From: a virus
Lineage: Duplodnaviria > Heunggongvirae > Uroviricota > Caudoviricetes
Strand: one strand, 5' to 3'
Length of the DNA: 4,533 bases
Virus record (IMG/VR): IMGVR_UViG_2711768021_000006
In this document: piece after piece, positions 1,499 to 4,533 of the stretch
Position numbering within the stretch: position 1 is the first letter of the stretch
How the letters are laid out: every line of letters begins with the position of its first letter
Made by a program: the position numbers and the translations under genes
Notes under the pieces: generated by a model
What the model was told of the DNA's origin: nothing
The model's database searches: none
What the model saw: the letters and a program-made list of their open reading frames with translations, nothing else

Positions 1499-2185
1499 TC
1501 ACTCCTTCTCTTCTTTACCGTAGTGGAGTTGACCAATTTTGATAAGAGGGCGTCCCTGAGATTTGCGGTGTAGATTGGTATCGCGCAGAGAATACACACA
1601 GCCACAATATTCCTGCTGATAGAATTTTTCGCGCTTGCTGATTTCAATCATACGGGACGAGCCGCCCTGCTTGCGCCAGTTATAATCCCAGTACACCATG
1701 CCCGGATAATGCGCGACGGCTCGCCGCCCACAGTCGTTAACCTGCTGCATATTTTTCCAGCGTGAAATGCCCAGTGAACTGCTGATCACACTGAAACCAT
1801 TTTCAGCGGCGTACAGCGCTGTCCGCTCAAAACGCATGTCAAAACACATGGTGCAACGGATCCCTCGTTCGGGCTCCCATTCCATTCCTTTGGCTCGTTC
1901 AAACCAGTTGTCTGTGTCGTAATCAGCATCAATAAACGGCACGCCGTGTTGTTCAGCAAAGCGAATATTCTCATCCTTACGAATTAAATACTCTTTCTGA
2001 GGATGAATGTTCGGGTTGTAGAAAAAGATGGTGTAGTCGATTCCCGAGGCCTGAAGCGCCTCCATCACCTCACCGGAACATGGAGCACAGCAAGAGTGCA
2101 GTAGTAGTTTGTTTGCCCCGTTTGGGAGCTCCAATTTGGGCCGTTTGAAATCAGCAACTGTCATAAATATGTTTATTGGGGTCAT
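1499..2185 (-). CDS. queH: QueH-family (DUF208) epoxyqueuosine reductase-like Fe-S protein, 228 aa
   Basis: Translation contains [11 protein letters not shown] near the N-terminus, an internal CTMC, and [12 protein letters not shown] near the C-terminus, which I recall as hallmark Cys motifs of the DUF208/QueH family. ATG at 2183-2185 (alternative ATG at 2162-2164); neither has a clear Shine-Dalgarno. Stop TGA at 1499-1501. Confidence 0.7.
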
Positions 2186-3169: not shown

Positions 3170-3183
3170 AAATCCTCCTGAAA

Positions 3184-3745
3184 CTACTTAACAACCCTCG
3201 AATGGCTAACATTCGGACGCCAGCTCTCCCAGTTAAAATTCACCCAGCGCCCGCCGTTCATNNNNNNNNNNNNNNNNNNNNNNNNNNNNNNNNNNNNNNN
3301 NNNNNNNNNNNNNNNNNNNNNNNNNNNNNNNNNNNNNNNNNNNNNNNNNNNNNNNNNNNNNNNNNNNNNNNNNNNNNNNNNNGATAGCTGCCGCTAAGTG
3401 ATTCTTCCCGGTACCAGGTTTTCCGCTGAACGCAAAATTTGTACACCCGGTCATCAGTTCATCGGCGATGGATTTCGCCTGGCTTAACGCGTATCGCTGG
3501 CCGTCGTTCTGCACCTGGTAATTCGCAAACGAGCATTTACGGTGCAACGGCTGGATGCCTGAGCGATTCAGAATTTTTTCCACCCGCAACTGGCGATTCA
3601 GGCGGTTGATCTCCTCGCTACGTTTCTGGCCTTCAGCAAGTTGCCACTCGCGCCACTCCGCTACCGTTCTGAATGGGGCGGTTACATGTGGCGGGGTCAG
3701 TCGGCGGATGCGTTCCAGAACGCCGCCTGTCGCAATATTTTTCAT
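3184..3745 (-). CDS. DnaC-like replicative helicase loader (prophage paralogue), interrupted by assembly gap 3262-3382
   Basis: N-terminal 121 aa (MKNIATGGVLERIRRL...NRSGIQPLHRKCSFANYQ...FSGKPGTGKNHLAAAI) aligns by eye with E. coli DnaC, including the Walker A motif. After the N-run, a different frame (codons from 3261 down to stop TAG at 3184-3186) gives GGRWVNFNWESWRPNVSHSRVVK, matching the DnaC C-terminus (..LWVIFNWDSYRSRVTGKEY). About 100 residues are unaccounted for, so the 121-nt N-run under-represents the true sequence. Confidence 0.8.
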
Positions 3746-4100
3746 GGTCCGTTACCCCCTGAAGCCTGGCGGGATCGCACTGTCCGGCAACGAGACGGTG
3801 TTAACCTGTCGGAGCAACGTCTCAGGCCGAACACCTTTCGGCGCGAACAGGCCCTGGTATTCATTGGCGATGCTGTGTCGAATCACCTGCTCAGGTGTAA
3901 AACCCTGCTGACGGAATTTTTCCAGTTCCCGTATCGCCCCGTTAGCGCCCTGCTCCGTTCGAATCGGTTTTCGCAATGCCTGTCTGAACCGGACCCACTC
4001 ATGCCAGAGTGTTTCCGGCAACCAATCGGGCAGCTCAATAGCCTCCGGCTCGAATTTTTTAGACGCTCGTTTTTGGCGAGGGGGAGATCAGTATTTAGAT

Positions 4101-4120
4101 CTTCCTCTTCCTCTTCCTCT
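4101..4120. repeat. Tandem hexanucleotide repeat (CTTCCT)x3.3, encoding (Glu)6 on the minus strand
   Basis: cttcctcttcctcttcctct read directly. Falls in the linker frame of the initiator gene. Confidence 0.6.
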
Positions 4121-4230
4121 GGTAACGCTTTTTGATCCGTTTGTGTAACGCTGGCAGCGTTACCTTTTCGTTTCAGTTCGCGTATTTTTGTTACTCGCTC
4201 GTTTGTAACCGCCCGTTTTTTTTAGAGCTT
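4119..4230. repeat. Iteron-like cluster of GTAAC/GTTAC motifs with dyad symmetry plus T-rich tracts; candidate replication origin inside the initiator gene
   Basis: GTAAC at 4122, 4145 and 4205; GTTAC at 4159 and 4190. Perfect inverted repeat GTAACGCTG-g-CAGCGTTAC at 4145-4163. T-rich runs at 4129-4133, 4165-4173, 4185-4189 and 4216-4223. A related dyad GTAACGC-cgcga-GCGTTAC lies at 4354-4372. Confidence 0.45.
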
Positions 4231-4428
4231 TTTCCGTTATGACGTTCAAAGTTAGGTAGAGAAAGCCCTCCGTCATTTTCGACCAGCCATCCAACCTGAA
4301 TTAACGCATCAGCAAAACCAGACATAAAAGTGATGCGATCTATTGCACTTTTTGTAACGCCGCGAGCGTTACAATCTGCATTACCGTCTATCATTTGTTG
4401 ATCCGCCCATGCCCAGAAGCGAATAACC

Positions 4429-4533
4429 TGAGGTAGCCTGAGTTTAACGGACACTCCTTCCTGAAATAGAATGGCATCAGAAGGAGCTAATAATGAGCAG
4501 AAAAACCCAACGTTACTCTAAAGAGTTCAAAGC
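4429..4533 (+). mobile_element. Left end of an IS3-family insertion sequence (IS600-like), running off the window
   Basis: Sequence from 4429 begins TGAGGTAGCCTGAG..., and IS3-family ends typically start TGA. The orfA start follows about 64 nt later. The N-terminal peptide MSRKTQRYSKEFK matches my recollection of IS600 OrfA. The right end is not in the window, so the boundary is approximate. Confidence 0.55.
4493..4533 (+). CDS. IS3-family transposase OrfA (IS600-like), 5' partial at window edge
   Basis: AGGAG at 4481-4485 followed by ATG at 4493. Translation MSRKTQRYSKEFK... continues beyond the window. Confidence 0.55.
   Translation, partial: MSRKTQRYSKEFK

Follow-up and report, generated by a model that had tools for sequence, protein, structure and literature searches.

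A candidate lambda-style replication origin of conserved GTAACGC half-sites inside a prophage initiator gene

Introduction

A replication origin that lies inside the gene for its own initiator is textbook knowledge for the lambdoid phages. In phage lambda, as in phi80, 82, 434 and the Stx phages, the origin (ori-lambda) is part of gene O, and linker repeats of this type are an experimentally established origin. The lambda origin consists of 19-bp dyad units in the codons of a flexible linker, which joins the DNA-binding domain at the N-terminus to the loader-recruiting domain at the C-terminus. An AT-rich tract stands on the C-terminal side, the N-terminal domain and its sites are exchanged as one module, and the gene belongs to the early rightward operon, beside the helicase-loader gene. 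Here we analyse a stretch of 4,533 nucleotides (nt) from a Caudoviricetes record (IMG/VR IMGVR_UViG_2711768021_000006; hereafter the window), which represents the replication module of a Rac-like lambdoid prophage with its genes read on the minus strand. The remnant of its YdaU-family initiator gene contains clustered copies of the half-site GTAACGC. We propose, with a probability of roughly 0.7, that these half-sites are the binding sites of the winged-helix N-terminal domain (N-domain) of the gene's own initiator and that, together with an AT-rich tract, they form a lambda-style origin.

All the features of lambda listed above have counterparts at this locus, where the position of the origin and the recruitment of a loader are proposed by analogy. 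The differences from lambda are equally clear. The N-domain is not Phage_rep_O, the half-site is GTAACGC instead of the lambda iteron, and the loader is DnaC/IstB-like instead of lambda P. The sites are distributed over two or three groups separated by about 200 bp, including one in the codons of the DNA-binding domain, whereas lambda has one tandem array. The Rac prophage of Escherichia coli K-12, which is reported to have an active origin, oriJ (PMC3945230), is of the same type as the prophage in the window and has the same gene order (ydaS/T-like, ydaU, ydaV). The C-terminal 124 residues of K-12 YdaU are 81% identical to those of the intact relative of the window protein, and BLASTP aligns nothing else; the N-domain of K-12 YdaU is DUF1376, unrelated in sequence to the N-domain studied here. 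Two further systems are related in part. The host dnaTC operon encodes in DnaT a matching tail of about 19 residues and has, as here, a DnaC-like gene next downstream; the rest of the present protein does not match DnaT, which is a replication-restart factor without an origin of its own. Iteron plasmid replicons (RepA, Pi, TrfA) use tandem direct iterons of 17–22 bp, whereas the sites described here are mostly inverted dyads inside a coding sequence.

Results

Half-sites and dyads in the initiator gene

Two intact E. coli prophage loci served as references; in both, the initiator gene has 789 nt and encodes a protein of 262 amino acids (aa). The window contains a remnant of this gene with the following elements.

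3752–4429, minus strand: initiator-gene remnant (YdaU family, PHROG 2509), a pseudogene with 98–99% identity to the intact 789-nt genes of E. coli prophages
4352–4374, no strand: dyad A, TTGTAACGC-CGCGA-GCGTTACAA, an exact 9-5-9 inverted repeat with the core GTAACGC-N5-GCGTTAC
4190–4209, no strand: two weaker half-sites found by motif scan, GTTAC (4190–4194) and GTAAC (4205–4209), without the GC extension
4145–4163, no strand: dyad B, GTAACGCTG-G-CAGCGTTAC, an exact 9-1-9 palindrome with the core GTAACGC-N5-GCGTTAC, centre of the linker cluster
4121–4129, plus strand: extra full-consensus half-site GGTAACGCT, the outer partner of AGCGTTACC at 4156–4164
4085–4120, no strand: AT-rich, strand-asymmetric tract with pyrimidines on the plus strand, defined by composition

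The window contains 13 copies of the pentamer GTAAC/GTTAC, compared with 4.96 ± 2.06 in shuffled sequences, none of 200 shuffles reaching 13. Seven of the 13 lie in 4122–4372 (4122+, 4145+, 4159−, 4190−, 4205+, 4354+ and 4368−). The concentration is sharper for the full half-site: five of the six copies of GTAACGC in the window fall within the 256 nt of 4120–4375, where 0.07 would be expected from the rate outside that interval (Poisson P ~ 1e-8). The half-site at 4121–4129 is 23 nt from the one at 4145. In total, the window has two exact dyads and three further half-sites, which is the repeated arrangement of ~19-bp dyads that characterizes lambda-type origins. We refer to the group around dyad A, which encodes the N-domain loop peptide NARGVTK, as cluster A, and to the linker group around dyad B as cluster B. 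The positions of the two weaker half-sites (gene nt 322 and 337) vary between relatives, and strain COL60J has one of them in the opposite orientation. In three complete phage genomes (38–45 kb), full dyads occurred at the initiator gene only, and lone half-sites elsewhere were few and scattered. The sole GCGTTAC of the window outside the initiator gene, at 2376–2382, is near the 3′ end of a 137-aa zinc-ribbon open reading frame; a lone copy accords with the chance expectation of 0.47 per window.

The original prediction, made from the letters of the window alone, had counted five GTAAC/GTTAC motifs in 4122–4210 and a perfect 9-1-9 palindrome at 4145–4163, and both statements are exact. The second dyad that it reported, as 7-5-7 at 4354–4372, is present but longer, being 9-5-9 at 4352–4374. 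It had also placed the sites in the linker between two protein domains; this applies to cluster B, whereas the second dyad is inside the N-domain coding region.

Intact enteric copies of the gene have a third dyad, TGTAACGC-TGCGA-GCGTTACA, located at −33 to −13 from the start codon and abutting the ribosome-binding site. It occupies 5171–5191 in the intact locus L002 and 1468–1488 in the Shigella locus L090 (see below), and in the Pantoea locus L094 it is upstream of position 1501, where there are four half-sites. This upstream dyad may be an autoregulatory operator.

The half-sites are conserved as DNA

Homologues of the N-domain were collected from phage records and from one genome per species, and genes more than 90% identical were removed. 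The remaining 78 homologues share 40–76% amino-acid identity with the intact relative of the window protein and come from Enterobacterales, Pseudomonas, Burkholderiales, Xanthomonas phages, Verrucomicrobiota and Planctomycetota. Relatives within IMG/VR were too alike to be informative (96–100% identity for this N-domain type and 95–100% for the K-12 type). Conservation of the motifs in homologous initiator genes, which the original prediction had proposed as a test, is evident at both positions: half-sites are present at the cluster A position (gene nt ~149–196) in 70 of the 78 homologues and at the cluster B position (gene nt ~344–417) in 65. Site density reaches 20–40 per kb at gene nt 120–210 and 330–420, corresponding to clusters A and B, compared with about 1 per kb in the rest of the loci. 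Both clusters share the consensus (G)GTAACGC(T).

The motifs might be a by-product of coding for a conserved peptide, or might have arisen by chance. Cluster A does overlap such a peptide, G-N-A-x-S-V-T-K, yet its synonymous codons are nearly fixed, and they are so at the motif codons only: Gly is GGT in 88%, Asn AAC in 100%, Ala GCT in 87%, Ser AGC in 98% (out of six possible codons) and Val GTT in 87% of cases. Beside the motif, Asp and Gln each use their two codons about 50/50, and for Gly at other places GGC is preferred. Cluster B is found in a predicted disordered stretch where the protein alignment breaks down, and each orientation of the half-site is read there in two codon phases. For instance, translation of the central dyad gives G-N-A-A-S-V-T in the intact E. 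coli copy (identical to the window at this place) and V-T-L-A-A-L in Klebsiella phage ST11-OXA245phi3.2. A chance origin conflicts with the local enrichment (P ~ 1e-8) described above. We give this explanation almost no credence, and the codon comparison excludes coding constraint alone. These results indicate selection on the DNA sequence of the sites and not on the encoded peptide, and it is close to certain that the sites constitute a DNA-level cis element.

In a Verrucomicrobiota subgroup with the N-terminus MRRPWIKIE (loci L139, L146, L148, L151, L159, L160, L166 and L168), a single GTAACG is located at about −55, and a TTGAC/TTGCA-like hexamer comes roughly 20 nt after it, an arrangement that gives the impression of a site shifted into the promoter.

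Spacing and specificity classes

Convergent half-sites are paired at a distance of 14 or 25 nt, values that differ by one helical turn, and neighbours in the same orientation are 11–12, 22–23 or 33 nt apart across the family. The spacing is concordant between clusters A and B of one genome (Fisher p = 0.001, a value that is optimistic, as is the one given next, because kin genes are treated as independent). This whole-turn geometry fits a protein that would bind one face of the helix. A minority class, whose members include a Vibrio phage, Rhodanobacteraceae, Paraburkholderia and Rhodospirillaceae, has GTCACGC instead of GTAACGC, and the replacement affects both clusters together: 62 genomes are A/A, six are C/C and one is discordant (p = 6e-8). 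Since the altered base belongs to the Asn codon, the peptide G-N-A becomes G-H-A in the GTCAC class.

These data also bear on the idea that the palindromes fold into hairpins, either in mRNA or in single-stranded DNA, and serve, for example, as a processing, attenuation or priming signal. The linker RNA folds better than shuffled sequences (z = −3.3), the main dyad forming a hairpin in the predicted structure, and the change from GTAAC to GTCAC alters both dyad arms together, as a compensatory stem change would. However, a stem would be expected to drift with compensation, whereas the arm sequence hardly changes between Enterobacterales and Planctomycetota. Direct repeats 11–12 nt apart, which are unable to pair, account for many of the half-sites (30 '++' and 21 '--'), and the class switch of each genome includes cluster A, cluster B and the unpaired half-sites. 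No Rfam family matches in the window. We therefore consider hairpins distinctly improbable as the explanation of the sites.

A further proposal is that the main dyad and the adjoining CTTTTCGTTT (plus strand of the window) form an intrinsic terminator of transcripts antisense to ydaU. This was the sole terminator-like site in the region in a consensus scan, but such a scan is expected to return 1.4 sites in shuffled sequences, and the T-rich tail is the complement of the Lys/Arg codons of the linker. A terminator would leave cluster A, the upstream dyad, the direct repeats and the class switching unexplained. We regard it as very improbable.

Domains of the encoded protein

The intact 262-aa protein matches PHROG 2509, 'replication initiation protein', over residues 1–262 (E = 1.2e-89). 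No Pfam family matched it at E ≤ 0.01, neither Phage_rep_O (PF04492) nor DUF1376 (PF07120) nor DnaT (PF17948); as positive controls, the O protein of Gifsy-2 matched Phage_rep_O at 1.5e-30 and K-12 YdaU matched DUF1376 at 2.7e-26. An AlphaFold model built from 36 homologues was poor overall (predicted template modelling score 0.37). It nevertheless contains a confidently predicted N-domain (residues 10–95), a disordered stretch (residues 96–159, nearly all with a predicted local distance difference test score below 50) and a helical C-terminal domain (C-domain). The predicted fold of the N-domain is a winged helix. When the sites are placed on this model, cluster B corresponds to codons ~108–137, inside the disordered stretch between the two folded domains, and cluster A falls in the N-domain codons, in a low-confidence loop (residues 53–57).

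The original prediction had described the C-terminal domain as DnaT-like. The likeness is confined to the last ~19 residues: the tail RQVNTVSLPDSAIPPGFRG (residues 244–262; window 3752–3810) closely matches the tail of host DnaT, RDVNTVSEPDSQIPPGFRG, and the rest is below the DnaT thresholds. NCBIfam NF002770 (DnaT) gave 16.2 bits against a cut-off of 201 bits, on residues 244–262 only, and in a profile search against solved structures the DnaT tail was the sole match (E 0.17–0.49). A genuine Pfam DnaT domain is present in two further proteins with this type of N-domain. The tail may be a shared docking peptide for the DnaB–DnaC complex.

An AT- and purine-rich tract adjoins cluster B

Next to cluster B, the window has a 20-nt all-pyrimidine tract (4101–4120), the coding strand of which is a GAA/GAG repeat encoding EEEEEE in the acidic linker. 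It adjoins an AT-rich stretch with GATC sites (4086–4100). The bias is a family trait: in the 78 homologues, gene nt 390–420, directly past cluster B, exceed the locus mean by 15% in AT and are 72% purine. The composition is that of a lambda-type origin, and 4085–4120 is a candidate DNA-unwinding element. The same segment is a candidate junction of module exchange, since both the homology with K-12 ydaU and the divergence from other C-domain types start at the acidic/AT tract. GATC (Dam) sites occur at 4086, 4098 and 4134, three within 50 nt across the AT tract and the edge of cluster B; K-12 Rac has two GATC at the homologous place. In the Shigella-type copies L090 and L091 the acidic tract is shortened (PVEEED).

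Initiator domains and linker repeats in related prophages

Homologous C-domains are found behind three unrelated N-domains, each with its own linker repeats, and the present N-domain is found, together with its sites, in front of C-domains of two or more types. A direct link between the lambda system and the present family is the O homologue of Gifsy-2, in which a Phage_rep_O N-domain is followed by a linker whose codons contain seven lambda-type iterons and by a C-domain that shares 40% identity with that of the intact protein. The likeness to lambda that the original prediction had drawn is borne out in its parts, namely a winged-helix N-domain (as predicted), dyads in a disordered linker, an AT-rich tract, a C-domain and, in Gifsy-2, iterons at the same linker position. 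The N-domain is likely to be the binder, because it is the sole constant partner of the sites; the C-domains and the neighbouring genes differ among loci.

K-12 ydaU also combines a repeat cluster in the linker with a local minimum of GC content. Three copies of ATGTTCAAAC (at most one mismatch) occur there within 68 bp, and one other copy occurs in 9 kb. The repeat, (A/G)TGTTCAAACA, is present as two direct copies and one inverted copy (4505–4578 of the K-12 locus, L003), and weaker copies in the DUF1376 codons (L003 4263–4277 and 4348–4362) mirror the two-cluster layout. The K-12 linker repeats are a candidate for the core of oriJ. Data on oriJ would not transfer directly to the present gene, because K-12 Rac has a different N-domain.

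An alternative that must be weighed here is that the dyads are operators only, through which the initiator or another phage regulator would repress or block transcription or translation of its own operon, with the true origin located elsewhere, for example in ydaV or in an intergenic region. Plasmid Rep proteins commonly autoregulate through inverted repeats, and the position of the upstream dyad against the ribosome-binding site of the intact copies would suit such a role. The alternative also gains from a primer pair 'framing oriJ' (De Paepe et al. 2014), which falls inside K-12 ydaV (L003 5241–5395), ~0.7 kb downstream of the ydaU linker. However, the part of ydaV between these primers shows neither repeats nor a local rise in AT content. 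Of the three groups of sites, two are 150–400 nt inside the coding region, and a 1-kb scan around the gene gave no promoter-like sequence. Operators alone would leave the conserved AT/purine tract past cluster B without a role, and at the corresponding position the relative of the lambda-O type has true origin iterons. In addition, no other regulator is constant across the family, in which upstream and downstream genes differ among loci. An operator-only role is possible mainly for the upstream dyad; as an account of all the sites we judge it unlikely, though not negligible.

In the literature that we searched, which did not include the original mapping papers, there was no position or sequence of oriJ beyond that primer pair and no report of iterons for the YdaU family. 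DnaA boxes were absent near the initiator gene. In a plasmid collection, the element was present in two of 72,556 records, both of 41–52 kb and phage-like, and in no small replicon. An initiator 96% identical to this one is encoded by the Rac-like phage vB_EcoS-673R7, whose genome was deposited as complete.

Decay of the initiator gene and layout of the window

Alignment with the two intact copies shows that the initiator gene in the window is dead, with three lesions, listed here with the neighbouring loader gene.

4078/4079, no strand: deletion of 10 bp between two AGGGGGA direct repeats, where the intact copies have GAGGGGGATTTAGGGGGAG
4216–4223, no strand: T-run of T8 instead of the T6 of the two intact genes, a +2 frameshift
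4430–4533, plus strand: left end of IS600, 100% identical to IS600 on Shigella flexneri virulence plasmids
3233–3745, minus strand: ydaV, encoding a DnaC/IstB-like ATPase (intact homologue: Pfam IstB_IS21 1e-19, Bac_DnaA 2.5e-8)

Of the two homopolymer frameshifts in the original prediction, the one in the T-run is real, whereas the other is the 10-bp deletion between direct repeats. The IS600 truncation had not been mentioned. Homology to the intact prophages ends at 4429, and because IS600 occupies the sequence from 4430 on, the first ~103 nt of the gene (~34 codons) and the upstream sequence are displaced by the insertion at 4429/4430, which also cuts off the third dyad from the gene. An IS600 identical to the Shigella flexneri plasmid copies, inside the initiator gene, points to a Shigella or Shigella-like host. 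The element in the window is a relic, with its sites intact and its initiator broken three times. In the Shigella flexneri SFBU1023 copy (L090; also L091), there is no IS600 cut, and the product is 210 aa only through another frameshift, in the C-domain; because the frameshift differs, this decay is independent of that in the window.

The order of open reading frames in the window agrees with that of the two intact loci, which consists of cI/cro-like regulators, ydaT, the initiator gene, ydaV and DUF977, with QueH in one of them. DNA nearly identical to 3383–4533 is present in 3,523 of 5,426 complete E. coli genomes (megablast), where the matches are annotated as hypothetical or as a 'YdaU family' phage replication initiator, followed by ydaV. 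The product of ydaV is presumed to be the helicase loader. Within ydaV, 121 nt are masked as N (3262–3382), and the region 3170–3760 is about 185 nt shorter than the intact locus in the alignment; either the mask replaces a longer piece or there is a real deletion. The window also has a complete gene for QueH, epoxyqueuosine reductase (1499–2185, minus strand; Pfam 1.9e-65), a tRNA-modification enzyme as phage cargo. A second run of N, 405 nt long, occupies 1013–1417; in the intact locus L002, hokD is located 228–383 nt past the end of QueH, and to judge from this spacing the mask would cover the place expected for a hokD type I toxin locus.

Discussion

We propose the following sequence of events for the intact prophages. 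Transcription of the early rightward operon would yield the initiator, dimers of which would occupy the dyad just before the start codon, the one in the codons of the N-domain loop and the cluster in the linker codons. The resulting nucleoprotein complex would destabilize the adjoining AT-rich tract, and the C-domain with its DnaT-like tail would then bring in host DnaB via the DnaC-like YdaV. Binding of the repeats by the N-domain is suggested by three observations: the sites always travel with this domain, both clusters switch class together and the predicted fold is a winged helix. That replication would start at these sites is suggested by the architecture and by the analogy with lambda, and unwinding in the AT tract by its composition.

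Several points weigh against this proposal. Binding, unwinding and initiation at the sites are deduced, not observed. Three groups spread over ~400 bp are unlike the single tandem array of lambda, and the one dyad that overlaps the ribosome-binding region might serve regulation only, as an operator. The Verrucomicrobiota subgroup with the N-terminus MRRPWIKIE mostly lacks cluster B, and the optimistic Fisher p-values and the oriJ primers within ydaV count on the same side.

What is new here is a family without a Pfam model, a half-site conserved across several phyla, a division of the sites into groups, with one group in the codons of the DNA-binding domain, and two specificity classes. The result provides a concrete candidate origin for a widespread family of phage initiators, most of which are annotated as 'hypothetical protein'. 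The half-site consensus, the two classes and the spacing rule could serve to annotate prophage origins and to predict cross-activation between prophages. The locus is also a case of overlapping codes, in which predicted DNA-binding sites determine the choice among synonymous codons and are translated in several frames.

In the window, a decayed Shigella prophage keeps intact candidate origin sites beside a dead initiator. Because that gene is broken three times, the sites could fire only with an initiator supplied in trans by a related prophage; a related superinfecting or resident phage could in principle do so.

The binding sites lie in the initiator's own coding sequence, the loop of the DNA-binding domain included, so that a change of origin specificity necessarily alters a residue of the protein. 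The switch from GTAAC to GTCAC changes Asn to His; if this residue reads bases, one mutation would switch both the site and its reader. We consider this last idea doubtful. If true, it would provide a self-referential route to new origin specificities, and hence to new replication-incompatibility types, in a multi-phylum family.

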